This document shows, one piece after another, positions 5,314-21,771 of a DNA stretch of 32,000 nt (its first letter is position 1; each line of letters opens with the position of its first letter). The translations under genes and the position numbers were made by a program. Source of the stretch: Trichodesmium erythraeum IMS101 (lineage in GTDB: Bacteria > Cyanobacteriota > Cyanobacteriia > Cyanobacteriales > Microcoleaceae); assembly GCF_000014265.1 (NCBI RefSeq), contig NC_008312.1:7080001-7112000 (forward strand), written 5' to 3'. The notes beneath the pieces were generated by a model. That model was not told where the DNA came from. It saw only the letters and a program-made list of their open reading frames with translations, and did not search any database.

Positions 5314-6330
<1,017 letters not shown>

Positions 6331-6340
6331 CTAATAATTT

Positions 6341-6388
6341 TGATAGTGATTAATCATAATCAAAAATTCACATCTAGTCAATAGAGAT
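6341..6388 (-). promoter_or_regulatory. putative sigma70-type promoter of hemB overlapped by a Fur-family (Zur-like) box
   Basis: The minus strand reads TTGACT (6381-6376), a 17-nt spacer, then TATGAT (6358-6353). The plus strand GATAGTGATTAATCATAATC (6342-6361) matches the 19-mer Fur box GATAATGATAATCATTATC at 17/19 if one inserted T is allowed. A 36-bp core (6353-6388) is about 33/36 identical to 17378-17413. Confidence 0.55.
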
Positions 6389-6640
6389 AAGGGATAATCT
6401 CCATCCGATCTCAAATTAAGTAGGATCATATAATTATTGCTCTGCTGATTAACTATGAAATCATTTATAGATAAAAGCTTTAGTGTTTATGAGTAGAAAA
6501 AAGTACATGTTTTGCGATTGCTCATAGCTACAAAAAATCAGCATTTTTATCAGACAATGGCGATAAAATTAATGAAAAAATATATAAGGCTAATTCCTCA
6601 TTTTTTGGGAAAAAATTAACTTTTTTTTCAACTAAATAAG

Positions 6641-7372
6641 CTATGTATTTTTATAAGTTACGCTTCTAAAGGAAACCTCATTAGTATTAGGGTTATAAAG
6701 AGTATAAGTAGCATTTCCCGGCAAACTTCCCACATTACCTACCCCTATAACCTGATAGGGTGTCGTCAAAGTTTGAGTAGATGATGTTGTCTCAATAGCA
6801 CCAACTTCAGCTCCCAACTTTGTCACTCCACTACTCACCGAACCATTTTCCAACTGATATTTAAAAGCTAAACCGGAGCGACCACAAAATAAATTATTAA
6901 CGCCAAAACGCATTAATCTATCTAACATTTGTATCGGTGGAGTATCGGGAGTCAATTTATCGCTGACCCCCAGAGTGCTACCATGAATTAATAAACAGTC
7001 AAGTTCAGAAAAACCAAAGGGCAAACTTCTTAACCATTCTACTGTTTCTCTATCCACATTGTCCCATAATATTTTCACAGTATTCATACCATATTCTGCT
7101 ATTAATTCTGTTGGTTCGGCTGTGGTAGTTAATCCATGTAAAATTAAACATTGTTCTTCCCACCATCCCATACATACTTTGGGTTTAAGTTCGTTTTGTT
7201 TTGGATAACGTACTCGCTCTACTAATTTTTTGCAATCTATATTTAGCCCGACAATATCCCCCAAAATATATAAGTCTTCTACCAAATACTTCTGCTTTTT
7301 TATATCAGCTATTACAGCATCATAAGCTGTTATATTTCCTTCTATCTTAGTTAAAATTGCCCAGTAACTCAT
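6641..7372 (-). CDS. degenerate metallophosphoesterase-fold protein, paralog of 8372-9187, probably catalytically inactive
   Basis: 243 aa, collinear with the 271-aa paralog. The calcineurin-fold motifs are lost: TKIEGN for DxH, MGWWEE for GNHD/E, CGRSGL for GHxH. Only GD (LGDIVG) and IHGS remain. Confidence 0.6.
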   Translation of the reverse strand: MSYWAILTKIEGNITAYDAVIADIKKQKYLVEDLYILGDIVGLNIDCKKLVERVRYPKQNELKPKVCMGWWEEQCLILHGLTTTAEPTELIAEYGMNTVKILWDNVDRETVEWLRSLPFGFSELDCLLIHGSTLGVSDKLTPDTPPIQMLDRLMRFGVNNLFCGRSGLAFKYQLENGSVSSGVTKLGAEVGAIETTSSTQTLTTPYQVIGVGNVGSLPGNATYTLYNPNTNEVSFRSVTYKNT

Positions 7373-7589: not shown

Positions 7590-8275
7590 CTAACTAACTC
7601 CTAAAACATGAATAACCATGGGTTGATTTTCATCAATAAAATAATCTATGGGTTTTAATCCTCCTTTTATAGCCTGATTTTTAAAATAACCTACGGGATA
7701 TTTATAATAACTTAATAGATGAAATTTTGTGCCTTTCTTAATATTTATCGGAATGCCATCTAGAACAAAGTTGTGTTCTTCAGTTGCTCTGACATTATGT
7801 TCTAAACAATGAGTTTCAGCTACCCAATTAAAATCATAATTAAATGTAGTTGGATCGAACCCATAAACTGGTAGATCGCCATTGATCAAATATCAAATAC
7901 TAAGTATCAACTTTGCCATTTTTCTATCATTATAAGCTTTTCTTAATGACGACTAATTTTGATTAGTATCCTGTTTCCTAAAAATAGAAATTTTGCATCA
8001 GAAAGGCATCAGGCATTAAAATCTATCATAATATTTGCTCTTGAGATACACTAAAGCTCAATACAGTTTAGTTAAAACGAAAACTCATAAGAGATGGAAT
8101 GATTATATAGAATTTTCCAACTACAAAAATGCCAAAAAAATCCTTAAGTGAACCGTATTGAAATATAAGTTTTAGTTAGTAAGTGGACTGTAACTATCTT
8201 TGCCTGAATTTCCTAGAATTTTATCTTCAGATAATTTATAAATTGTTTTTGGGGCTTTGCTTTCCAAACTCTCAA
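7590..8275 (-). pseudogene. EgtD-like (histidine N-alpha-methyltransferase family) SAM methyltransferase relic
   Basis: The 99-aa ORF (TTG start, 7590-7889) reads FDPTTFNYDF...CLEHNV...GTKFHLLSYYKY...GGL...IDEN, matching the C-terminal EgtD pattern FDxxxFxHxA...IEMxL...GExxxTExSxKF...AGL...TDE. Upstream out-of-frame pieces read LRKAYNDRKMAKLILSI* (AYND..GVT..FN block) and FLMQNFYF* (FLGSSIGNF-like). A MITE-like copy is inserted at 8059-8160. The 5' limit is uncertain. Confidence 0.45.
8059..8160. repeat. MITE-like ~100-bp element, copy A (inside the EgtD-like relic)
   Basis: The left end is CAATACAGTTTAGTTAA. Internal AAACTCATAAGAG follows. The right end is CAAAAAAATCCTTAAGTGAACCGTATTG, whose reverse complement (CAATACGGTTCAC) mirrors the left end. 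Confidence 0.5.
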
Positions 8276-8331
8276 GTTAAATTAGCATCTTTTTTTTCAT
8301 AATCTAAAATAGATAGCACTTTCAACTCAAA

Positions 8332-8350
8332 ACTTGTAATAATTACAAGT
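8332..8350 (-). terminator. palindromic hairpin directly after the metallophosphoesterase stop
   Basis: ACTTGTAAT-N-ATTACAAGT is a 19-nt perfect palindrome lying 22 nt past the stop. On the minus strand it is followed by TTTGAG, a short U-tract only. Confidence 0.4.
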
Positions 8351-8371
8351 CAACAACCAACTCCTAATTAA

Positions 8372-9187
8372 TTATCTCTCACAAATATGAGTAGGATCAT
8401 CAGCTTTTTCAGCATATTCTAAACCCTTTGCCAAACGCCAAGCAAAAATTTCTGGCAACCCCTTATTAACTATAGCTTCACAAGTAAGTTGATAATCATA
8501 GGGAATCTCTCGAATATTTACTTCCCCTGTTTCATTATCATAAATAACATAAGTAGCATTCGGTCTGCCATGGCGAGGTTCTCCTACAGAGCCAACATTA
8601 ACAATTTTTTTCATAGGAGCAATACAAGTATTTGACTCTAAATTTTCCCTCCCAAAACTACTAACTTTAACTGATAGTTGACTAGCATCAAGAGTACGAA
8701 CATAAGGCACATGAGTATGACCGCAAAACAACACATCAGCACCACTACTAACTACCCTTTCAACTGCTAAAAATCCATATAAATCTGGTAATAAATATTC
8801 ATGGTTACTATGAGGACTACCATGAACAAAACACATATTTTCCTCTTTCAAACTATGAGGTAAAGACCCTAAATATTCTCGAGTTTCTGGGTGAATTTCT
8901 TGATTAGTCCATTCGTGGGCTAACTTGCCACGTTTCTCTGCTAATAAAGAAGGATAACTACATTCACAAGAATTTAATCCCTCCACAATATCCTCATCCC
9001 AACAACCTAAAACTGTGGGAATATCTAAACTGCGAATTTGCTCGACAACCGCATTAGGATGGGGACCATAACCGACCAAATCTCCCAGACAGAAAATTTT
9101 CTCTGCTTTCTGTTTTTCTATATCTATTAATACAGAATTTAAAGCTTCATAGTTACCATGAATGCAAGACATAACTGCAATTTTCAT
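8372..9187 (-). CDS. metallophosphoesterase-fold protein with Cys-substituted metal ligands
   Basis: 271 aa. The motifs are MSCIHGN (Cys where Asp of DxH is expected), LGDLVGYG, GCWDED (in place of GNHD/E), VHGSP and CGHTHV, plus an extra CECS cluster. The start overlaps the upstream stop as ATGA (9184-9187). Confidence 0.75.
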   Translation of the reverse strand: MKIAVMSCIHGNYEALNSVLIDIEKQKAEKIFCLGDLVGYGPHPNAVVEQIRSLDIPTVLGCWDEDIVEGLNSCECSYPSLLAEKRGKLAHEWTNQEIHPETREYLGSLPHSLKEENMCFVHGSPHSNHEYLLPDLYGFLAVERVVSSGADVLFCGHTHVPYVRTLDASQLSVKVSSFGRENLESNTCIAPMKKIVNVGSVGEPRHGRPNATYVIYDNETGEVNIREIPYDYQLTCEAIVNKGLPEIFAWRLAKGLEYAEKADDPTHICER

Positions 9188-9957
9188 ACTAATTCTTCCT
9201 CTGTAATTCCTAATGTTTCTTTCACTTGTTGTTGATAAGCTAAAATTGTTGCATCAGGCAAACAACAATCTTGTAAACTTTCCGCCAAAGCTTTTTGATT
9301 TAAGTTATGACCAAAAACTTCAATTCCACTAAAACGTTCTGGTCTACCTTTTAGCCACCTTGGTAAATTTAATTCTTGATATTCTGTCTCTTTTCCTAGT
9401 ACAAAATCAAAGTAAAAAGCACGTCCATCAGCAATATCAAAAATTGCTTTAGCACGAATTATTTTACCATAAGCACCTGCGGTTAATTCTTCATACCAAA
9501 AAATATCTACACTGGCCGGATCAATTACTTGACCCTGGGTAGGCGATCGCCAGATCTGACAGTTATTAGTATTGCTCTCAATAGCCAACCCTTCTACAGT
9601 TTCGTTTGCCCACTGATGCCATTCACTATTTTTTGTTCCTGGTGGGATAATGGCAATACGACTGCTAGGAATAGTATCAAGCAGTGATGACATTGCATCT
9701 AATTCTAAATAAAATCCTAATTCGACAAAAGCAACTGCACCATTAGCAAGATATTCTATGAGCTGTGACTCTTGAGCATCAGAAATAATTTTTAGATGGG
9801 GAAATTCTGTAGCCAGACAGGTTTGGTCAATGGGAACATTGCCGGTACCAGGGCTAAAATAGACAGCGGAATTAGCTTTAGGGATTTGTTTTCGAATAAA
9901 ACTTGTTTTGCCGACACCCGGTGGGCCAGCTACTACAGTAATTATAGGTTTTGACAT
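9184..9957 (-). CDS. divergent P-loop GTPase with a CobW_C-like tail (G3E-like)
   Basis: I chose the start at ATG 9957 (MSKPIITVVAGPPGVGKTSF...), which removes the 115-nt overlap of the longer track ORF with the upstream gene. It has Walker A GPPGVGKT and a C-terminal IIRAKAIFDIADGRAFYFDFV block resembling the CobW C-terminal domain. There is no CxCC motif. Confidence 0.65.
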   Translation of the reverse strand: MSKPIITVVAGPPGVGKTSFIRKQIPKANSAVYFSPGTGNVPIDQTCLATEFPHLKIISDAQESQLIEYLANGAVAFVELGFYLELDAMSSLLDTIPSSRIAIIPPGTKNSEWHQWANETVEGLAIESNTNNCQIWRSPTQGQVIDPASVDIFWYEELTAGAYGKIIRAKAIFDIADGRAFYFDFVLGKETEYQELNLPRWLKGRPERFSGIEVFGHNLNQKALAESLQDCCLPDATILAYQQQVKETLGITEEELV

Positions 9958-9971
9958 TTTTCTTCCATAGC

Positions 9972-11165
9972 TCAACTTTTCAATGCTGATACAATGCGGC
10001 CACTTGCCATTCTTGCCCCCGATAGGTTTCTGGCGACAGGCCCTACTTGCAAAGCAGCTAGCCCACCCATAATAAATAGTTCGCAACCAGACCAGCGCAA
10101 ATATTCATCTAATACTGGTAAACCATTCACTATTTCTAGTGGGTGGGTATGCAAAATTTCTTTTAAGATAGGTTGTTTTCTAACATCAAGTTTTGTACCT
10201 GTTGCTAACCAGATACGATGGTATTCTCTCATCATTCCATCATCACATTTTAATTGCCAGCGATCGCTGACAAACTCAGCACTTATTACTTGACATTCCT
10301 CAAAAATAGATAACTCATCTTGATGTTGGTAACGGCGTAACTTAGTCATTACTGCTGGTGTCATAGAACCGCCATCTCGTGCTTCTTGAATTAACTGCCA
10401 TCGTTTTTGCCAGTCAGTTTCGGCGCTAAAACCTTTTAAATATTTTGGACCTAACCAACCGGGTTCCGCATCAAATAATTTCTCTTTGAGGTGACGTCTG
10501 ACCATCAAGGTTACATTTGCGCCTCGTTTTAAGGCTCCTAATGCTAAGTGACCGCTAGTTAAGCCCCCACCGATAATTAGCACTTTTTCACCTCTGAGTC
10601 GCAAGCCTCGCAGGTCTACTTGGTGGGAGTGACAAAGGCATTGGTTTGGATAGGGAGTAGGAGTTTTTTTCGCCCATTCTGGAAGTTGAGGTTTTCCCCC
10701 ACCATTGGCCATAATTACTTGACCAGCTATGGTTGAGTTGCCATCATCTAATTCAACTCGAAACTGAGGGTTCCCTCGGTAGGTTATGGGAACAATGTTT
10801 GTCACTGATGCTTTGTATACTTTGTCTTCTAACTGCCAGCGACTAACTACATCTTGGGAAAATTCTTGAAATAGTTTTGTTCCAGGTAAGTCGTAGGGGG
10901 GGAATAGTTCGTTTGGGCGATTTTCTGCAAACCGACGCAGGGAATAGGGATCTGGGTCTGGATGGTGAACGGCGGGGGATCGCAAGTGGGGTATTTCTTG
11001 GGCTGCAAACTGCTGTCGCCACTGACTCATCCAAGTGGCACTGGGGTCAAATACTATTATTTTATGGTGATACTTTTTCCGTTTTTGCAACAGATGAGTT
11101 ACCAAAGTTAGGGCATGGGGTCCCGCACCTACAATGGCCATCTTGGTTTGTATTGGTAAGGACAT
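9972..11165 (-). CDS. FAD/NAD(P)-binding oxidoreductase (two-dinucleotide-fold, N-hydroxylating monooxygenase-like)
   Basis: It has IVGAGPHALT (GxGxxG, FAD) near the N-terminus and a second VLIIGGGLTSGHLALG (NAD(P)H) fold. The track ORF begins at a TTG (11180). The first ATG is 11165, and ATG 11141 (MAIVGAG) is also possible. Confidence 0.7.
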   Translation of the reverse strand: MSLPIQTKMAIVGAGPHALTLVTHLLQKRKKYHHKIIVFDPSATWMSQWRQQFAAQEIPHLRSPAVHHPDPDPYSLRRFAENRPNELFPPYDLPGTKLFQEFSQDVVSRWQLEDKVYKASVTNIVPITYRGNPQFRVELDDGNSTIAGQVIMANGGGKPQLPEWAKKTPTPYPNQCLCHSHQVDLRGLRLRGEKVLIIGGGLTSGHLALGALKRGANVTLMVRRHLKEKLFDAEPGWLGPKYLKGFSAETDWQKRWQLIQEARDGGSMTPAVMTKLRRYQHQDELSIFEECQVISAEFVSDRWQLKCDDGMMREYHRIWLATGTKLDVRKQPILKEILHTHPLEIVNGLPVLDEYLRWSGCELFIMGGLAALQVGPVARNLSGARMASGRIVSALKS

Positions 11166-11187
11166 ACAATTAAAAAACAATAATTTT

Positions 11188-11206
11188 AAGAATGATTATC
11201 ATTCTT
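11188..11206. promoter_or_regulatory. perfect 19-bp palindrome resembling a Fur/Zur operator, directly upstream of the oxidoreductase-GTPase-phosphoesterase operon
   Basis: The minus-strand reading is AAGAATGATAATCATTCTT, a 9-1-9 perfect palindrome. It matches GATAATGATAATCATTATC at 15/19 and TGATAAT-N-ATTATCA at 12/14. It lies 22 nt from ATG 11165. A TATAAT-like sequence lies just upstream on the minus strand. Confidence 0.6.
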
Positions 11207-11238
11207 TTTTTTATTAATTATATATATACCTGTAAGGA

Positions 11239-12598
11239 CTCGCAAAGTAGATTTTTTCCCTGGTTATACTGCGTCAACAGCTCACATTAGTTACAAATAA
11301 GTTGTAAGCTTTTTGATGCCTAGACTAAAAACTGTGATACACTCCCGACTTTGATACAAGCTACAAAGCCAGCTTTTCAGCGCCTCTACTATGTAGACAT
11401 AAACTGAACTAACAAGGAATGCCTTACCTCTCCAATTGATGCGTAAATAGGCTCAATTGAAACCTTTGTAGAATTAAAATTTGATTGGTGGTAGCAAATC
11501 TTTAATTAATAGTTTTGCTCTATTTTTGATGTTAATTGCAGCATTTAAGTCTCTACCAATTGATAAATTACAGTTAGGATATTGGTACTGTTTTTGAGCC
11601 AAAGTTTTATTGAATTTATCCCCACAGTTACTGCATTTAGTTGACGTTCTATGAGGTTTAATTTCTACAACTAACTGACCAGCTTTTTCGTCTTTGTTAG
11701 TTAAAATAGTCTGGAAATTTCTCTATCCTGCATCATCATATATAGACTTAGCTAATCTAGATTTAGCCATATCTTTTATATTTAGCTTTTCTACTGCAAT
11801 AATGTCATATTTATATGACAAATTATTAGCAGTTTTCAAGGGTAAATATTTTCCGGTATGAGCTAGTTTTCTATGTTTGTTAGCTAAATGTTTAATTGAC
11901 TTTTGTCTACGTTTATAACCTTTCTTTCTTCTAGATACTTTCTTTTGTGCTAGCTTGAGTTTTCCTTCAGACTTTATCAAGTATTTAGGAGCTGCAACTG
12001 ATTCATTATTATAAATAACAAAAAAAAATTATAAGACCAACATCTACAGCTTATTTCTCAAATATTTTGCTAGTTTTTTTTGACGCTATAAGACTATAAA
12101 CATTTTTATTAATTAAATTACTAATTACGTTAATATCTATTATATTTACTATTTATACCTAGAGCTAAATAATGTTGTAATTATTGATATTTAAAACCTT
12201 TTCATCTAAAATTTTAGTCAATTGATTCTGGGTTTTTTTATCAACTTTATAAGGAAAAATATTTCTGTAAATTGCATTGTTAATACATATTTAAAAAAAT
12301 AACAATATAAGTAAATAATAAAGTCATTAATGTTTCATATATAGAGGGTATATATATTCAATATATATATACTGATTAATGAAGAAAAAAAATTTTTATA
12401 TATATATTATTAACTAGAGAAAGCAAATCAATTAGGAATAACACTAGCTTTTACTATCAAAAAGGCAATGAATTGGACATTATATGGCCAACAATTAGCC
12501 AAAAACACTGTAATACTTTCTCTGTCAAGGTCATAGACTATTTGCTGTTAATGTGAGCCGTCTGGGCAGTATGATCCAGGAAAAATTCTGTTTGCGAG
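11239..12598 (-). mobile_element. decayed TnpB-only insertion sequence (IS200/IS605-family, IS891/IS1341-like size, ~1.36 kb) bounded by ~50-bp imperfect inverted repeats
   Basis: 11239-11289 reads CTCGCAAAGTAGATTTTTTCCCTGGTTATACTGCGTCAACAGCTCACATTA. The reverse complement of 12549-12598 reads CTCGCAAACAGAATTTTTCCTGGATCATACTGCCCAGACGGCTCACATTA, about 75 percent identity. tnpB relics lie between them. The interior 12050-12420 is AT-rich low-complexity sequence including (TA)n. Confidence 0.55.
11474..12050 (-). pseudogene. tnpB: tnpB (OrfB, RuvC-like RNA-guided nuclease family) relic
   Basis: The minus-strand pieces in order are AVDVGL (RuvC-I, 12033-12050), a frameshift, then VAAPKYLIKSEGKLKLAQKKVSRRKKGYKRRQK...DIIAVEKLNIKDMAKSRLAKSIYDDAG. 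A TAG replaces the expected Trp. It continues NFQTIL...HRTSTKCSNCG...NCNLSIGRDLNAAINIKNRAK to stop 11474-11476. Weak N-terminal traces reach about 12560. Confidence 0.8.
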
Positions 12599-13355: not shown

Positions 13356-14504
13356 ATGCATATTGCTTGGCTTGGAAAAAAATATCCTTTTTGTGGCAAC
13401 GTTACCTACTCTAGAGAAATAACTAATGCTCTCTTAGATAGAGGTTATCAGGTAAGCTTCCTTCACTTTGCCACTGATGATGCTGACCTGGAAAAATGGC
13501 CTGTATGTGAAGAAGTACATCTACCTTGTATCTACAAGTCTCAAGGTTATACGATACCAAGTTTTAAATCTAGCAAAGTCTTAAGTCAGGCTCTACAAAA
13601 ACTTAAGCCCGATATTGTTCATGCATCTCTGACCCTCTCTCCTTTGGATTTTTTGTTACCCGAAATTTGTGAGGAATTGAATATTCCTTTAGTAGCTACT
13701 TTTCATGCCCAATTTGATAGTAAACCACGGAATATTAAATCTGGAACCCAATTTTTGGCCTATCAACTCTATGCTCCTTTTCTGGCAAATTATGACCGAG
13801 TAATTATTTTTTCAGAAATACAGAAAGATTTACTAATAAAATTGGGGGTTCCGCGCAAAAAGGTTGCAGTTATTCCTAATGGGGTAAATATAGATAAGTA
13901 TTCTCCTGGTGTCTCTAGTCTAAAAACTAAGTTAAATGCTAGCCTGATATTTCTATATTTGGGCCGTATATCTACAGCTAAAAATATTGAATCTCTGCTC
14001 AAAGCTTGGAAACATTCCGATATGGCTAATGATAGTTGTCTAGCGATCGTTGGAGATGGGCCATTAGCTCCTTCTCTACAAATGTTTTATGGAGATGTTA
14101 AAGGAGTTAGTTGGTTTGGGTATGTGAGTGATGAGCAACGACGAATAGAAATTTTGCGTGGTGCTGATGTATTTATTTTACCTTCTCTAGTGGAGGGTTT
14201 ATCTTTGGCTTTACTGGAGGCAATGTCTTGTGGTTTAGCTTGTATAGCTACAGACGCAGGTGCTGATGGTGAGGTTTTGGAAAAAGGGGCTGGTATAATT
14301 TTGAATACTCATAATGTTACTAGCCAATTACAAACTTTATTTCCTTTATTTAGGGATCATCCTGAGTTAAATATTCTTTTGGGGCAAAAAGCTCGCCAAA
14401 GGGTTTTGGAGCGTTATACTCTGAGTCGAAATATTACTCAATTGGAAATGCTTTATAATGAAGTTTTGCAAGAAAGAAATTTGGAATTGAAAAGTTTAAT
14501 TTAA
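13356..14504 (+). CDS. glycosyltransferase, GT4 family (GT-B fold, group 1)
   Basis: 382 aa. The C-terminal E-x7-E region LPSLVEGLSLALLEAMSCGLACIATDAGADGEV is typical of retaining GT4 enzymes. Confidence 0.8.
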   Translation: MHIAWLGKKYPFCGNVTYSREITNALLDRGYQVSFLHFATDDADLEKWPVCEEVHLPCIYKSQGYTIPSFKSSKVLSQALQKLKPDIVHASLTLSPLDFLLPEICEELNIPLVATFHAQFDSKPRNIKSGTQFLAYQLYAPFLANYDRVIIFSEIQKDLLIKLGVPRKKVAVIPNGVNIDKYSPGVSSLKTKLNASLIFLYLGRISTAKNIESLLKAWKHSDMANDSCLAIVGDGPLAPSLQMFYGDVKGVSWFGYVSDEQRRIEILRGADVFILPSLVEGLSLALLEAMSCGLACIATDAGADGEVLEKGAGIILNTHNVTSQLQTLFPLFRDHPELNILLGQKARQRVLERYTLSRNITQLEMLYNEVLQERNLELKSLI

Positions 14505-15388: not shown

Positions 15389-16027
15389 CTAATGGAAATT
15401 ATGACTATGTTTAATTAAACTCATAAATTCTTGACGAGTTTTCACGTCATCAGCAAAAACACCACGCATAGCGCTAGTAGTTGTCCAAGAACCAGTTTTT
15501 TGTACTCCACGCATGACCATACACATATGAGTTGCTTCAACAACTACAGCAACACCTAAAGGTCTAAGTAACCCTTGAAGTGCATCAGCTATTTGTGCTG
15601 TTAGACGCTCTTGAACTTGTAAACGTCGGGCATACATTTCACAAATTCGAGCAATTTTTGATAGCCCAATAACTTTTCCATTGGGAATATATGCTACATG
15701 AGCGCGACCAATAATAGGGAGAATATGATGCTCGCAAGAGCTAAAAAGATCGATATCTCGAACTAAAACCATCTCTGAGGTATCTTCACTAAAAACAGCT
15801 CCATTGAGCAGTTCATCTAGAGATTGATTATAACCTGAAGTGAGAAATTTTAGTGCTTTTACCACTCGTTTAGGAGTATCTAATAACCCTTCTCGATCTG
15901 GGTTTTCTCCTAGTCCTATTAATAAAGTTCTTACCGCTTGCACCATTTCAGCTTCTGTAACCGAAGTCTGATATTTCGTTTTCAAGTCATTGGGAGAAAC
16001 AAAATCTGGAACTGTTGGTAAATTCAT
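15389..16027 (-). CDS. folE: GTP cyclohydrolase I (type IA, Zn ligands retained)
   Basis: 212 aa. The blocks [39 protein letters not shown] and [10 protein letters not shown] are canonical FolE with the Cys/His/Cys Zn site. Confidence 0.9.
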
Positions 16028-16146: not shown

Positions 16147-17130
16147 TCACATAGTTAGACAATTTGTTAAGTTTTGTTGAATTATTAATGGATCCAAATT
16201 TCGCCCAATTAATACTAGCTGATTTGTCGGAGTGGTTGACCATTCATCTATTTCCATCTCATAGCGCTTACCACTCAATTGAAATATATGTTTTGATTCA
16301 CTTTCTTGGAACCAAAGAATTCCTTTGGCTCTAAATACATTATCTGGCAATTCCTCTATAAAATTATGTTGGAATTTCAGGGCAGAAAAAGGTCTTGTAC
16401 TTTGGAATGAAACAGACATAAAACCATCATTTATCAGATGATCTTTAGGATTTTTTTGTAGTTTTGAGTGATCGTTATTGTCCTCTAGAGAATAAGGCTG
16501 AAGCCTTGATATATTTACATCTAAAATTAAGTATGATGGTATATTACTGTGCTCACTTCTTAAAATCCTAGCTCCACTTCTTATAGTTTTAATATAAGAG
16601 TCTAAATAATCTACTTTATCTTGGGAGGCTAAATCTATTTTATTGAGTATAATAATATCCCCATAAGCAATCTGTTTAAAAGCTGCTTCACTATCGAAAT
16701 GGTCTGGTGTAAAATTTTCACAATCCACTAAAGTCAGTACAGAATCTAAGTGAGTTAAATCTTTTAAATCTGTACTCAAAAAAGTTAAAATAATTGGCAA
16801 AGGATCTGCTACACCAGTAGTTTCTATAATTAAATAATCTATTTTTTTATCGCTTTCTAAAACTTGATATACTGCATCTACTAATCCTTCATTGATAGTA
16901 CAACAAATACAACCATTACTAAGTTCTATCATATTATCGTTCATATCTGTTAATAACTGGGTATCTATATTAAGATCCCCAAATTCATTAACTAATACTG
17001 CGACTTTTAAATCCTGCTTATTCTGCAAAATTTGATTTATCAGGGTTGTTTTACCACTACCTAAAAATCCGGTAATAATAGTAACTGGCATCCCTCTTTT
17101 AGGAATATTTAATTCTAGTGAATTATTCAT
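16147..17130 (-). CDS. COG0523/CobW-family G3E GTPase (putative Zn metallochaperone class)
   Basis: 327 aa. It has GFLGSGKTT (Walker A), the GCICCT CxCC metal motif, ETTGVADP, NKIDL, and the CobW_C block RAKGILWF. It lies 119 nt upstream of folE on the same strand. Confidence 0.85.
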   Translation of the reverse strand: MNNSLELNIPKRGMPVTIITGFLGSGKTTLINQILQNKQDLKVAVLVNEFGDLNIDTQLLTDMNDNMIELSNGCICCTINEGLVDAVYQVLESDKKIDYLIIETTGVADPLPIILTFLSTDLKDLTHLDSVLTLVDCENFTPDHFDSEAAFKQIAYGDIIILNKIDLASQDKVDYLDSYIKTIRSGARILRSEHSNIPSYLILDVNISRLQPYSLEDNNDHSKLQKNPKDHLINDGFMSVSFQSTRPFSALKFQHNFIEELPDNVFRAKGILWFQESESKHIFQLSGKRYEMEIDEWSTTPTNQLVLIGRNLDPLIIQQNLTNCLTM

Positions 17131-17141
17131 TACTGCTAAAT

Positions 17142-17237
17142 TTATTTACGAGGGTAGCTACTCAAACAAAAACCTTGTTTATCATGAATAATACGATTGA
17201 GTAAGGTGGTTTTGTCACTAACAAGAAAACCTGTCAT
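17142..17237 (-). pseudogene. N-terminal relic of a further COG0523 GTPase gene in the leader of the intact one
   Basis: A 31-codon ORF reads MTGFLVSDKTTLLNRIIHDKQGFCLSSYPRK*. GFLVSDKTTLLNRI is a mutated GFLGSGKTTLLNRI Walker A region. It lies between the promoter (17361-17413) and ATG 17130. Confidence 0.55.
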
Positions 17238-17360
17238 AATAATTGTCAATTATCCTTATAGATGAGTTACTAACTAGCTAGGTAGAAAATTTATATTTAT
17301 AGTTTATTCAAGAGATTCTATTGGCTGATTTTCCTTAATTATGGCCATTAAGCCTATAAA

Positions 17361-17413
17361 TTATTGCAATAATTATTATCATAATCAAAATATTACATCT
17401 AGTCAATAGAGAT
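17361..17413 (-). promoter_or_regulatory. putative promoter of the COG0523-folE unit overlapped by Fur-family (Zur-like) boxes
   Basis: The minus strand reads TTGACT, a 17-nt spacer, then TATGAT (-10 at 17383-17378). The minus-strand TGATAATAATTATTG (17381-17367) matches TGATAAT-N-ATTATCA at 12/14. The plus-strand AATAATTATTATCATAATC matches the 19-mer Fur box at 15/19. A 36-bp core (17378-17413) is shared with 6353-6388. Confidence 0.6.
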
Positions 17414-17441
17414 TCTGGAAAATCTTCATTGAATAGTAATA

Positions 17442-17892: not shown

Positions 17893-18228
17893 TTAATTCC
17901 AACGGTTTTCTGCCTGTTTCAATACATAGGCTGATACTGTTTGTATCTCTATTTCTGTTAAACGGTCTTTGTAAGCTGACATATTATTTTTCCCATTCTT
18001 AACTAAGTAAGCTATCGCCTCAACAGAATCTAATTTATTTCTTTTCAAAGTTCTTATTTTTAAGTTCTTCCACCATTTAACAATATTGCCTCCTTTGGCA
18101 TGACAACCTGCACAATGAATCTGAAAAACTTCTGCGCCTTGTGTTATTTCTGTTGCTAATACAGTGGGTATTTTAATAATGTTTATTAATATAAATATTA
18201 ACAAGCAAACTGTAATTATTTTTTTCAT
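17893..18228 (-). CDS. class I c-type cytochrome, cytochrome c6-like (c6B/c6C/PetJ2-type)
   Basis: 111 aa with an N-terminal signal or anchor. It has the heme motif CAGCH followed by GGNI, plus NGKNNMSAY (Met axial ligand) and VSAYVLKQAE. Confidence 0.75.
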   Translation of the reverse strand: MKKIITVCLLIFILINIIKIPTVLATEITQGAEVFQIHCAGCHAKGGNIVKWWKNLKIRTLKRNKLDSVEAIAYLVKNGKNNMSAYKDRLTEIEIQTVSAYVLKQAENRWN

Positions 18229-18412: not shown

Positions 18413-18913
18413 TCACCAAAAATCAATTTTTTCAAATAATTGACGCCATTCTTTCACAGCAAATATAGGTACTACTATTTCAGCTATACTAGAATCTTGT
18501 AAAGATAAATGTAGTCGCAGTGGAGTATCATAATCTAAATTTTTCATGACCTCAAGAAAATTATATTCTGCAACATTAGGAGGAAAAGATGAGTCTAACA
18601 AAACATTATCTGCTTTCCATACCTTACCAGTGCCAGTCGTAATTTGCAATTTTTGGGAATTAGCTAATTTTATCATTCCAGGAAAACCTACTAGTCGTAA
18701 ATTTAAATTTTTTAATTGACCAGATTTGATTCTTTTGTATAATACTGCTTGCCATGCCCGGTCTGAAATATCTCGCAAACTTTGTTGAGAACGATACATT
18801 ATTTGTATAGAAGATTCAGGGTATTTATGAATAGAAGCTAGGGCATTCTGAGGATTAAATATTATTAAATATAGGGATAATATTAGGGTGAAAATTAAAG
18901 TAATTTTTCTCAT
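18413..18913 (-). CDS. secreted hypothetical protein (cyanobacterial DUF3122-like)
   Basis: 166 aa with a signal peptide (cleavage near ALA-S). RAWQAVLYK...LRLVGFPG...NVAEYNF resembles my recollection of the DUF3122 pattern. No catalytic motif is seen. Confidence 0.5.
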   Translation of the reverse strand: MRKITLIFTLILSLYLIIFNPQNALASIHKYPESSIQIMYRSQQSLRDISDRAWQAVLYKRIKSGQLKNLNLRLVGFPGMIKLANSQKLQITTGTGKVWKADNVLLDSSFPPNVAEYNFLEVMKNLDYDTPLRLHLSLQDSSIAEIVVPIFAVKEWRQLFEKIDFW

Positions 18914-19416
18914 TTTTTGATTAATTACTTGATAATAATTAAGGTTACAAGTTAACTAGCCCAAGGGGTTAAGTAAAAATTACAATTCAAAGTTAACCTA
19001 TTCAAAGGTTAAAATTTAAATTTGATATTTTCAGGGCTAAAAATTTTAATTAAAAGTGAAAATTTACCTATTTAAAATTTAAAAAATCTCCCCCTTTGTC
19101 TCCCATCAAAAGGTGGAAATTTAAAAGTTAAATCTTTAGGGTTCAAAGCTTTGGTGCTACAGTAATTTAAGTCTTTCATAGCAAATTTTTAAAGTCTAAA
19201 AAATGCTAAAATATCTATGCTTTAATACTTTTATATTTAATCAACAAGCCCTAAATAAAGTTTTTATTACAAACAAAAAGTAATAGATGTTTGGCTACGG
19301 AACATGAAAAATATATTTCCGACCAAGGAGGCTAGCTGAGGACTAAATGCTGATCATAGCCAATAACTTTCAATATTAAGAAACTTTTGAAAGATATTGG
19401 CTAAAACAAATTAATA

Positions 19417-20196
19417 CTAATGAGTTAATACTCGTTCTTCTAACTCCAATTCAAAACGTTCTCCTGGTTTGGGTTCGATAATTTTTGTTGCTAAATTACT
19501 TTTAACCAACTGAGACTGTATTTCTTTAATATTTCCTTTTTCTTTGAGGAAAAATATTAATAGTCCTTGAAAGTCTATATCGCCCCCTGCTGCTGTAGGT
19601 AGCATAATTTGAGGTTCTAACCATTGAGCTACTTGTAATGCACTTTCATTTCCTTTAATTATTGGCCCGACTAATGGTAAGTTCAAACTGATAACTGGGG
19701 AAATGACAACATCTACAGGTGCAAATTCTTTGATTTTTTCAGAATGGCTGCCATGGGGCTCATAATATATTGTGTTCCCAGTGCTCAGGTCTTTGAGAAT
19801 ATAACCATTTTCTACTAAAGTTGGGCCCACTAGTGAGCCGGGAACTGCTCTAATTTCAATGCTATTTTCAAAAGCATAGGTATGGCCATGCTCAAGTGTA
19901 ATTACTTGAGAGTAACCTAACTCTTGCACTACTTTTGCTGCGGCCGGAGAGGCAACAACAGGAATGTTTTTGTCTAGCTGCTTAAGAGTTTCTGGGTGAG
20001 CGTGGTCTTCTAGTCCTTGAGATAATACAATAAGGTCTACTTTTTCTGGAATATTACGGGGTGTGAGTCTTTCTCCTTTAAACAACCAAGATAGATTTCC
20101 GAAAACTAGGGGGCCAACGAGCCAAGGATCTATGAGTATTTGTTTACTTCTAATTTCAATTAGCCAGGAATTACTGTCTAACCAAGTTAAGTGCAT
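19417..20196 (-). CDS. MBL-fold metallo-hydrolase family protein
   Basis: 259 aa. The N-terminal beta-lactamase-fold pattern is LTWLDSNSWLIE...ILIDPWL, with the motif region SQGLEDHAHPE and later HG / EPHGSH histidines. Confidence 0.6.
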   Translation of the reverse strand: MHLTWLDSNSWLIEIRSKQILIDPWLVGPLVFGNLSWLFKGERLTPRNIPEKVDLIVLSQGLEDHAHPETLKQLDKNIPVVASPAAAKVVQELGYSQVITLEHGHTYAFENSIEIRAVPGSLVGPTLVENGYILKDLSTGNTIYYEPHGSHSEKIKEFAPVDVVISPVISLNLPLVGPIIKGNESALQVAQWLEPQIMLPTAAGGDIDFQGLLIFFLKEKGNIKEIQSQLVKSNLATKIIEPKPGERFELELEERVLTH

Positions 20197-20808: not shown

Positions 20809-21771
20809 TTAACTACGGTTAATTTCTGCTAAAATTTGATCTAAGATTTCTTGGGCGCCTTGTTTTCTTAGTTTTTGAGCTAATTCGATGCCTATTTGTT
20901 CTGCATCAGCAGTGGCTCCAGTTACAATATCCTTAACTAATTTCTTACCATCTAAACTAGCGACTAAACCAGTTAAAGTTAGTTGTTCTCCTTCTATTTG
21001 GGTGTTAACACCAATGGGAACTTGACAGCCTCCTTCTAATTCTCTCAGAAAAGCACGTTCGGCATAACATCTCTGAGCAGTGGCAGTATGTTCCAGACTT
21101 TTCAATAAATTGAGAATATTATTATCTCCGGCACGACATTCTATTCCTAAAGCACCTTGTCCAACGGCATGAAGAGAAATTTCTGGAGGTATAATTTGAT
21201 GAATGCGATCGCTCATCCCCAACCTATGCAAACCAGCAAAAGCCAATATTAGAGCATCATACTCACCAGCATCTAATTTTGCTAGTCTAGTATTCAGGTT
21301 ACCACGAACATCTTTAAATTCTAAGTGAGGGAAGTGGTAGCGCAGTTGTGCTAAACGTCTTAGGGAAGAGGTACCAATGACAGCACCTTCTGGTAAAGTC
21401 TCAAGTTGTTTATCTTTTAATTTTTCATGGAGGACTAAAGCATCTGCAGGGTTTTCCCGTTCGGTGACGCAACCGAGAATTAGACCTTCTGGTAAGTTTG
21501 TGGGTAAGTCTTTTAAGGAATGAACTGCTAGGTCAGTTTCATTTTGCAGCATTCCTAATTCTAGTTCTTTAGTAAAAAGCCCTTTATCTCCTATTTTTGC
21601 TAAAGCTACATCTAGAATTTTATCTCCTTGGGTAGACATTTTGTGGACTTCAAATGTAATATTTGGGAAATTTTTTTCAAGTTTTTCTTGGACCCAGTAG
21701 GTTTGAATTAAGGCGAGTTGACTTTTGCGTGAACCGATCCGAATGGTAGGAGTAGAGGCAGATATTGTCAT
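20809..21771 (-). CDS. hemC: hydroxymethylbilane synthase (porphobilinogen deaminase)
   Basis: 320 aa. [49 protein letters not shown] and [17 protein letters not shown] are canonical HemC. Confidence 0.92.

Follow-up and report, generated by a model that had tools for sequence, protein, structure and literature searches.

A predicted Zur operator ahead of a flavoprotein gene and a conserved COG0523-like NTPase–metallophosphoesterase triad in Trichodesmium erythraeum IMS101

The present analysis concerns a 32,000-nt stretch of the Trichodesmium erythraeum IMS101 genome (NCBI RefSeq assembly GCF_000014265.1, contig NC_008312.1, forward-strand positions 7,080,001 to 7,112,000; hereafter "the window", with all coordinates counted from its first letter) and, within it, a minus-strand operon of three genes preceded by a perfect 9-1-9 palindrome. 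The genes encode, in the direction of transcription, a flavoprotein (OXR), a P-loop protein (NTPase) and a protein of metallophosphoesterase fold (MPE), with a gene for a degenerate MPE paralogue (MPE2) following after a 1-kb spacer. An earlier interpretation based on the letters of the window only (the sequence-only reading) saw a Fur-family operator lying over the promoter of metal-starvation genes, and this stands with the metal now named as zinc and the regulator as Zur: the palindrome is very probably an operator of this zinc regulator (a FurB-type Fur paralogue), and the operon would be regulated by zinc accordingly. The explanation that appears best overall, and which is considered likely as a whole, combines this operator with a conserved NTPase-MPE-MPE2 core, a working model of what this core might do, and an OXR that is under a control of its own.

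Layout of the operon and of its upstream region

The operon is as tightly packed as had been described, with a 14-nt gap between the OXR stop (9972) and the NTPase ATG (9957) and an ATGA overlap of NTPase and MPE at 9187-9184 (the coordinates of all main features are collected in Table 1). As the ATG at 11165 and the MSLPIQT that follows it are conserved in 11 relatives, most of which have ATT in place of the second ATG (11141), OXR is taken to span 11165-9972 and 397 aa, which equals the length of its homologues. The palindrome, confirmed on the minus strand (11206-11188), indeed lies 22 nt before this ATG. The top promoter-like site of the region (10/12 in the promoter scan) is a predicted sigma-70-type promoter, both hexamers of which are kept in Okeania, Dapis and Trichodesmium relatives; the box begins 10 nt past the -10 hexamer (6 nt in the relatives) and would therefore lie over the expected transcription start, in a predicted geometry of classical steric repression. 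Just upstream of the promoter region there is an 85-aa fragment of an IS200/IS605-type TnpB (11723-11980, minus strand).

The A+T-rich hairpin 3' of MPE, which had been thought to close the unit, does exist, although it is not terminator-like (it fails the terminator scan, and its folding is no better than that of shuffles, z = -0.62) and in other genomes the unit goes on to include MPE2. The Rfam scan of the whole window returned no riboswitch or RNA family.

Table 1. Coordinates of the main features within the window
Feature	Coordinates	Strand	Remarks
hemB, porphobilinogen synthase, cysteine-less type	5314..6315	-	recurrent neighbour, probable fellow regulon member
hemB promoter TTGACT-17 nt-TATGAT (predicted)	6353..6381	-	overlapped by degenerate Zur-like array TGATTATGATTAATCA
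MPE2, 243-aa full-length degenerate MPE paralogue	6641..7372	-	third member of the core triad; recognised by hhalign
A+T-rich perfect palindrome/hairpin 3' of MPE	8332..8350	-	9-bp stem; unconvincing as terminator
MPE, 271-aa metallophosphoesterase-fold protein	8372..9187	-	thiolate-substituted motifs SCIHGN, GCWDED
NTPase ("GTP"), 257-aa COG0523-derived P-loop protein (predicted)	9184..9957	-	Walker A, ExG Walker-B-like motif, CobW_C-like C-terminus
OXR, 397-aa FAD/NAD(P)H flavoprotein	9972..11165	-	predicted N-hydroxylating (class B) monooxygenase fold; Pfam, AF2 + Foldseek, orthology
Predicted Zur box, perfect 9-1-9 palindrome AAGAATGATAATCATTCTT	11188..11206	-	sequence, consensus matches, conservation in relatives
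Predicted sigma-70-type promoter	11217..11245	-	-35 TTGCGA 11245-11240, 17-nt spacer, -10 TATAAT 11222-11217
folE, zinc ligands kept (SSCEHH, HMCMVMRGV)	15389-16027	-	follows canonical COG0523
Canonical COG0523 gene (GCICC, IIETTG, LNKIDL)	16147-17130	-	
Two Zur-like boxes before COG0523-folE	17234-17248 and 17367-17387	-	

Conservation of the box and the identity of its regulator

The palindrome contains two overlapping 7-1-7 sites, each agreeing with the Zur consensus TGATAATNATTATCA at 12 of the 14 specified positions, whereas over its whole length it agrees with the classical E. coli Fur 19-mer GATAATGATAATCATTATC at 15 of 19 positions (a previously claimed figure that rescoring reproduced) and with the Anabaena FurA consensus AAATAAATTCTCAATAAAT at just 11 of 19. 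As perfect 9-1-9 palindromes are not rare in a window of 36% G+C (three were observed against 0.26 expected, and at least one occurred in 23% of shuffles; ATATATATTCAATATATAT at 12350-12368, in an A+T-rich intergenic stretch, is another), the case for the box is made by its sequence, for which the chance expectation at up to three mismatches is 0.04, and by its conservation, rather than by its symmetry.

The conservation was followed through relatives of the NTPase, which a scan of representative genomes (one per species, 185,579 species) placed at 311 sites; the best 80 of these 311 places were examined with 6-kb flanks, and the counts given below as fractions of 80 refer to them. These loci span Nostocales, Oscillatoriales, Coleofasciculaceae and Leptolyngbyaceae, the nearest relatives of the window being metagenome-assembled genomes and isolates of Trichodesmium, Okeania and Dapis with 86-93% protein identity. 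In 76/80 loci, the core AATGATNATCATT, with no more than two mismatches, precedes the leading gene of the cluster at a constant spacing: members of the Okeania clade have it 47 nt ahead of the conserved MAIVGAG segment of OXR, about 22 nt ahead of the start codon; outside this clade it lies 4-9 nt ahead of the NTPase start; and where OXR is divergent, it sits in the spacer that OXR and NTPase share. Perfect sites occupy the same position in several relatives (TGATAATCATTATCA in locus L013, TGATAATGATTATCA in loci L073 and L078). Within the 849 kb of these loci, the core occurs 45 times exactly and 88 times with one mismatch (133 in total), as opposed to 0 and 2 in shuffles, and the genes that have a box within 300 nt upstream are chiefly OXR (30/32), NTPase (63/79), hemB (19/22) and canonical COG0523 (15/24); the scarcity of boxes before MPE (3/77) and MPE2 (2/73) is as expected for operon-internal genes.

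Zur rather than another Fur paralogue is suggested by the shared core, by orthologous loci that are Zur-controlled and by the poor FurA match. A predicted Prochlorococcus Zur site between znuC and znuA (AAAATGATAATCATTtTCA; supplement of Haas et al. 2009) has the same core, and the window box is close in sequence to the Anabaena all4725 and all3515 sites, for which the oligonucleotides used in the electrophoretic mobility shift assays (EMSA) contain TGATAACCATTATCA and CGATAATGATTATCA, respectively (PMC10957091 supplement). Zur binding to Pall4725 and Pall4723 is reported in PMC6103462 and PMC10957091, the former of which also quotes Kd values for Anabaena Zur sites. The order ALAD-OXR-ThrRS-COG0523-FolE around the OXR orthologue P0375 (61% identical), in which the region upstream of ALAD equals the all4725 EMSA probe, identifies OXR with Anabaena all4724, which is a member of the Zur-bound all4725-all4721 cluster. 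In Synechococcus (Picosynechococcus) sp. PCC 7002, moreover, a zur mutation led to derepression of hemB-II, folE-II, G0131 (GTPase-like) and G0132 (FAD oxidoreductase), all of which TPEN induced as well (PMC4628125). The locus on plasmid pAQ7 of that strain is homologous to the window: G0132 shares 56% identity with OXR and is oriented divergently from a truncated NTPase, and a perfect TGATAATTATTATCA lies in the spacer between them. The pAQ7 module (locus L081) is a decayed one, with the NTPase cut to 165 aa, an orphan open reading frame (ORF) instead of MPE and only the C-terminal half of MPE2, while the sister strain Picosynechococcus PCC 73109 (L095) has an intact OXR<>NTPase-MPE-MPE2 arrangement.

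Two other readings of the box have to be set against this one. That it might be an accidental A+T-rich palindrome devoid of any regulatory role, as the base composition of the window, its three perfect palindromes and the shuffles mentioned above would allow, has next to no probability left and is effectively refuted by the comparative data, in which the predicted site keeps its position and sequence in 76/80 loci of several orders and relocates along with the promoter when the gene order changes. That it might be an operator of the iron regulator FurA (or of PerR/FurC), with the operon answering iron or oxidative stress, is more serious, and yet improbable. Several observations do pull away from Zur and, in part, towards this alternative: the match to the 7-1-7 consensus is only 12/14 (albeit twice), and many validated Zur sites resemble the classical Fur 19-mer less closely than the box does; A+T-rich boxes are recognised across Fur paralogues, and cross-regulation has been reported in Anabaena (PMC6103462); TPEN also induced iron-stress genes in PCC 7002 (PMC4628125), where, in addition, loss of Zur did not derepress the phosphoesterase remnants G0129 and G0130 (PMC4628125); relatives of MPE from other bacteria are located with FeoB-like genes (see below); and the promoter scan, taken as a whole, showed no enrichment over shuffles. 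The decay of the PCC 7002 copy may explain the lack of a response of G0129/G0130, however, and FurA is disfavoured not only by the 11/19 match but also by the recognised Zur-regulon genes znuA/znuC, canonical COG0523, hemB2 and thrS2, which are preceded by the same core, by the derepression of the orthologous OXR/NTPase locus of PCC 7002 specifically in the zur mutant (PMC4628125), and by the EMSA-validated Zur site before Anabaena all4725-all4724, i.e., before hemB2 and the OXR orthologue.

The triad, the flavoprotein and their possible roles

The trio of genes envisaged by the sequence-only reading is not what has been conserved. In 77/80 loci, NTPase and MPE are direct neighbours (median gap 17 nt), and NTPase, MPE and MPE2 are all present in 73/80, the remaining loci being cut by contig ends, whereas only 32/80 loci have OXR at up to 6 kb from the triad (17 co-directional upstream, 11 divergent, 4 downstream) and 48/80 have none in this range. 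Synteny across cyanobacteria thus bears out the NTPase-MPE pair as near-universal and not the OXR, and the conserved unit, NTPase-MPE-MPE2, includes a gene that had been overlooked; judged by its gene order, this triad probably functions as one unit. The earlier suggestion that the GTPase serves the adjacent metalloenzyme receives support insofar as the adjacency speaks for a functional coupling of the two.

In this genome, MPE and MPE2 are separated by the 1-kb spacer that carries a pseudogene fragment, namely, a 99-aa ORF (7590-7889, minus strand) corresponding to only the C-terminal third of an EgtD-type histidine methyltransferase; as a C-terminal fragment that is present at that position in 0/80 related loci, this EgtD-like ORF was rejected as a partner of the triad. 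Directly 3' of MPE2, a gene for a Crp/Fnr-family regulator is seen in 18 cyanobacterial loci (L015-L045 of the Microcoleus/Tychonema group, and L048), and a gene of the same family (7917-8591) also follows a Cys-type MPE on an unrelated metagenomic contig (L086). The triad ends a long low-zinc cluster (hemB<>thrS-DUF1636-COG0523-methyltransferase-hisI) on plasmid A of Trichormus variabilis ATCC 29413 (L082, 805-8388), and further copies are plasmid-borne in Dolichospermum and Picosynechococcus, and so the zinc island appears to be mobile.

The NTPase has the P-loop, the CobW_C-like tail (below threshold) and the lack of CxCC that had been noted, but its placement among the G3E GTPases holds only in part: homology to COG0523 is found at both ends, whereas CxCC, NKxD and the Pfam cobW domain are missing. 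Its Walker A motif is GPPGVGKTS (G11, G14, G16, K17 and T18 invariant), and a Glu-type G3/Walker-B-like motif, FVELGFY (E79 invariant, G81 nearly so), was assigned by position and inspection; the segment aligned with CxCC reads DAQE or DGQE and has no conserved Cys, and the region matching NKxD reads AIIPPG or AVLPP. Pfam cobW (PF02492) matched neither the window NTPase nor any of 22 family members, while CobW_C (PF07683) reached 19.8 bits in the window NTPase against a cut-off of 22 and matched 18/22 family members at E <= 1e-3 (best 5e-9). A profile-profile comparison with canonical COG0523 proteins from the same loci gave 92.7% probability and E = 5.8e-8 over 222 columns, the alignment joining both the P-loop/NEFGxxxID region and the CobW_C domain, and a sequence profile search of the PDB gave a marginal match to YjiA (residues 1-63, E = 0.02). 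The NTPase would thus be a shortened COG0523 derivative, and given the missing CxCC, NKxD and cobW domain, it cannot be taken for granted that it is specific for GTP or carries metal.

For MPE, the assignment of a calcineurin-type phosphoesterase fold proved right (Pfam Metallophos_2 at 71.4 bits with a cut-off of 27, Metallophos at 41.9 bits; closest solved structure 3rqz, E = 1.5e-35); its designation as a phosphoesterase is less secure, as motifs I and III lack their canonical residues (Asp, Asn and His). In motif I, SCIHGN, which aligns with SDVHAN of 3rqz, Cys8 takes the place of the canonical Asp and is invariant in 16 sequences; in the likewise invariant motif III, GCWDED, Cys62-Trp63 fall on the Asn-His of GNHD in 3rqz, with Trp replacing the catalytic His. 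Motif II (LGDLVGYGP, i.e., GDxxxxG) and motifs IV/V (VHGSP and CGHTHVP) are invariant, as are a C74xC76 insert and a C-terminal H267xC269. The substitutions are invariant across cyanobacterial orders, over which MPE has a median identity of 76%, comparable to that of hemB. MPE2 is recognisable as a paralogue by hhalign against MPE (E = 1.5e-29), gives no Pfam match in 13/13 members and has lost the metal-binding and catalytic residues (IEGN, GWWEEQ, CGRSG).

The best 120 homologues of MPE are all cyanobacterial orthologues and bear no functional names, and in an exhaustive search followed by alignment the orthologues collapse to one representative. Beyond them, there is a sister clade (34-43% identity) that shares SCxHGN, GCWD, CGC and a C-terminal CxC, and, more distantly, relatives that keep CGC and have the canonical ligands; the latter are located in pst and ars operons, whereas two genes of the sister clade show translational coupling to genes for FeoB-like GTPase permeases, beside FUR-family or Crp-type regulators. 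In GCA_041736645.1 (L087, 6860-6880), a perfect 9-1-9 palindrome, ATTGCAACAATGTTGCAAT, separates a FUR-family gene from an operon of a Cys-type MPE and a FeoB-like gene; it resembles the Mur/Fur-type TGCAA boxes of alpha-proteobacteria, and suggests that Cys-type MPE is under metal-starvation regulation outside cyanobacteria too. Substitutions of a related kind occur in known phosphoesterases, Dbr1 also having a Cys in motif I and YfcE having a Cys in place of the His of GNH. No literature linking a metallophosphoesterase to Zur or zinc limitation in cyanobacteria was found.

OXR, as had been recognised, is a two-Rossmann FAD/NAD(P) oxidoreductase by its two GxGxxG motifs (GAGPHA, GGGLTSG) and its weak Pfam matches (NAD_binding_9, Pyr_redox_3, Lys_Orn_oxgnase). 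No NCBIfam family matched it above the cut-offs, and a sequence-level search of the PDB was uninformative (a flavin-containing monooxygenase at 1.8e-6 and the NAD domain of thioredoxin reductase), so that only the fold search resolved it: the AlphaFold2 (AF2) model (mean predicted local distance difference test, pLDDT, 73.5) retrieved SidA, lysine 6-monooxygenase (5cqf), PvdA and DesB at the top of the Foldseek matches (E ~1e-17, TM 0.6-0.67), N-hydroxylases to which OXR is only 13-16% identical in sequence. The claim that it acts as the redox partner of the module did not survive, considering its presence near the triad in a minority of loci and in three arrangements, its own Zur box in 30/32 of them, its place in the hemB2-thrS2 operon of Anabaena and its fold. 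Judging from gene order and the structural model, OXR is best seen as a probable N-hydroxylase-like monooxygenase that is independently Zur-controlled, and its place at the head of the operon appears to be due to a recruitment in the Okeania/Trichodesmium lineage; the all4724/G0132 flavin monooxygenase would then be a recurrent, independently Zur-boxed member of the regulon.

Put together, these features allow for the following working model. In zinc-replete cells, Zn-loaded Zur dimers would sit on the two overlapping, half-matching 7-1-7 sites and keep the operon off; as cytosolic zinc falls, Zur would leave the DNA, and OXR-NTPase-MPE would be transcribed, with the other Zur-boxed units (COG0523-folE and probably hemB) being co-induced. 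MPE and MPE2 might form a heterodimer, for which the NTPase might be a nucleotide-driven assembly or metallation factor, and the thiolate-rich site of MPE might take up, or hold on to, a soft metal (Zn or Fe), so that hydrolytic activity would continue when zinc is scarce. This last part, an enzyme with its chaperone, is the likeliest of the models considered for the triad, and yet it is put forward tentatively and is itself rather doubtful. MPE, lacking the catalytic His, may be no hydrolase at all, and the chaperone role of the NTPase is an extrapolation, seeing that Pfam cobW does not match and that no COG0523 structure was among the Foldseek matches of its AF2 model to the PDB (pLDDT 80.6), which were generic P-loop folds only (guanylate kinase, SRP/FtsY/FlhF, Wzc; TM ~0.3); both points weigh on the model.

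In a different, and on balance unlikely, account of the triad, MPE is not an enzyme but a cytosolic thiolate-rich protein that stores, buffers or transfers metal on a phosphoesterase scaffold with nucleotide-gated partners. The lost His, the exchange of hard ligands for Cys, the extra invariant CxC and C-terminal HxC/CxC tails, the coupling of the sister clade to FeoB-like transporters and FUR-family genes, and a partner NTPase without a CxCC metal site of its own would all fit this, whereas MPE has kept, without any variation, GHTH, HGS and five of the seven canonical metal ligands, a dead paralogue as partner is typical of active enzyme/pseudoenzyme pairs, MPE is conserved at the level of the core enzyme hemB, and the CGC-insert relatives with canonical ligands reside in pst/ars operons, as ordinary hydrolases do. 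Should it nevertheless be true, which is given a small chance, the Cys-substituted MPEs would be a new class of cytosolic metal-handling proteins (Zn/Fe storage, buffering and hand-over), partnered by a CxCC-less COG0523 derivative in cyanobacteria and by a FeoB-like permease under Fur-family control in other bacteria, and the NTPase would be a chaperone whose metal site has been outsourced to its client. Improbable to a greater degree is the production of a zinc-scavenging metallophore, with OXR starting a hydroxamate-type chelator and the other genes processing or activating it: although the fold of OXR is nearest to siderophore N-hydroxylases (SidA, PvdA, DesB, lysine 6-monooxygenase), its homologues are labelled as SidA/IucD/PvdA family in databases and cyanobacterial Zur regulons include TonB-dependent receptors (PMC6103462), no nonribosomal peptide synthetase (NRPS), NRPS-independent siderophore (NIS) synthetase, acyltransferase or exporter is conserved near the triad in the 80 loci with their 6-kb flanks, OXR itself is missing near the triad in more than half of these loci and lies between hemB2 and thrS2 in Anabaena, and its identity to N-hydroxylases is low. 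A siderophore/zincophore pathway was consequently rejected as the main interpretation, there being no synthetase genes conserved nearby.

Zinc-related surroundings and comparison with known systems

The window holds further genes of the kind that recur near the triad across lineages (hemB in 26 loci, folE in 23, canonical COG0523 in 23, hisI in 13 and a GT4 glycosyltransferase in 10), and this recurrent set of neighbours is the signature of a low-zinc island. The cysteine-less hemB motif is taken here to denote the magnesium-dependent, zinc-independent type of the enzyme. Zur regulation of hemB2 has been described in Anabaena and in PCC 7002 (PMC4628125 for the latter). The promoter regions of hemB (6316-6400) and COG0523 (17345-17429), both on the minus strand, are 82% identical over ~75 nt (CTCTATTGACTAGATGT.. 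and TTTTGATTATGAT..) and are a duplicated promoter-plus-operator module, with 2 nt missing from within the Zur box of the hemB copy. The COG0523-folE pair looks like a metallochaperone with its client of the ZagA-FolE type. Beside it are genes for a cytochrome c (17893-18228), a DUF3122 protein (18413-18913, near which there is a weak Zur-like match at 18930-18944), a metallo-beta-lactamase (MBL)-fold protein (19417-20196) and hemC (20809-21771). The window also has a GT4 glycosyltransferase gene (13356-14504, plus strand) of the family seen near the triad elsewhere; a review lists a glycosyltransferase among the Anabaena Zur targets, and no Zur-like box was found upstream of the gene in the window.

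Published work already covers this type of operator, its regulator and the response of the OXR/NTPase locus to zinc. In the searchable literature, by contrast, nothing was found on the triad as a defined unit, on the pseudo-paralogue hidden in it or on the motifs substituted in NTPase and phosphoesterase; these additions amount to a variant of the COG0523-plus-client theme. The cyanobacterial Zur-box system is hereby extended to the Trichodesmium/Okeania group, i.e., to marine nitrogen fixers for which trace-metal limitation is ecologically relevant, and the main use of the result might be that the unit in need of an explanation, annotated only generically so far, is now defined. The features of the triad lead to testable hypotheses on how a metal site could be re-tooled or protected when zinc is scarce, and bear on the role of non-canonical COG0523 family members; to a specialist, this would be a useful testable lead rather than a surprise.

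Compared with phosphoesterases of the ApaH/SapH/YfcE type (Metallophos_2; 3rqz), MPE has kept the fold and length along with the GD of motif II, HGS, GHTH and GS, but reads SCIHGN instead of SDxHxN in motif I and GCWD instead of GNHD in motif III, and differs in its CxC insert, its C-terminal HxC tail and its constant pairing with a ligand-less paralogue. With the COG0523/G3E proteins (YjiA, ZigA, ZagA, Zng1, CobW), the NTPase has in common a P-loop followed by a NEFGxxxID-like segment, an ExG motif, a CobW_C-like end, a predicted Zur control and a location adjoining a metalloprotein gene, while it lacks the CxCC, NKxD and Pfam cobW features, is ~70-100 residues shorter and does not retrieve them in Foldseek; at a distance of 6 kb, the window also encodes a canonical COG0523 that has all of the missing motifs. 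Regarding alr1197, listed as a Zur-regulated COG0523-type gene of Anabaena, its orthology to the NTPase could not be confirmed, the supplements of three papers making no mention of it and the cluster look-ups for the NTPase returning no PCC 7120 member. OXR resembles SidA, PvdA, IucD and DesB in its predicted fold, its two dinucleotide-binding GxGxxG motifs and an ATG motif, yet has an invariant family-specific insert (residues 44-89, IPHLRSPAVHHPDP...; of low model confidence), no siderophore-synthesis neighbourhood and a predicted control by zinc instead of iron.

As for the box itself, the hexamer-array and overlapping 7-1-7 architecture is shared with the classical Fur box, to which it is so similar, but in its distribution over the phylogeny and in the genes associated with it, the box matches the cyanobacterial Zur regulon, not the iron regulon. 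The closest parallel to the predicted regulation is the Zur (FurB, All2473) system of Anabaena PCC 7120 (Napolitano et al. 2012, as cited in PMC6103462 and PMC10957091), with its TGATAATNATTATCA-like 7-1-7 site near the start codon and overlapping the promoter, and with the all4725-all4721 low-zinc cluster, which has the hemB2, COG0523 and folE companions in common with the window and the OXR orthologue all4724 inside it. The Anabaena sites, however, are single near-perfect 7-1-7 sites, as opposed to a perfect 19-bp palindrome with two overlapping 12/14 sites, and all4724 lies between hemB2 and thrS2, whereas the window OXR heads an operon with NTPase and MPE. The pAQ7 cluster of PCC 7002 (Ludwig et al. 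2015, PMC4628125) likewise brings together OXR, an NTPase homologue, a Zur box, folE and hemB; there, only a truncated NTPase and a piece of MPE2 are left and MPE is gone (all three being intact in PCC 73109), and OXR is divergent, whereas in the window it is co-directional with the rest of the operon.

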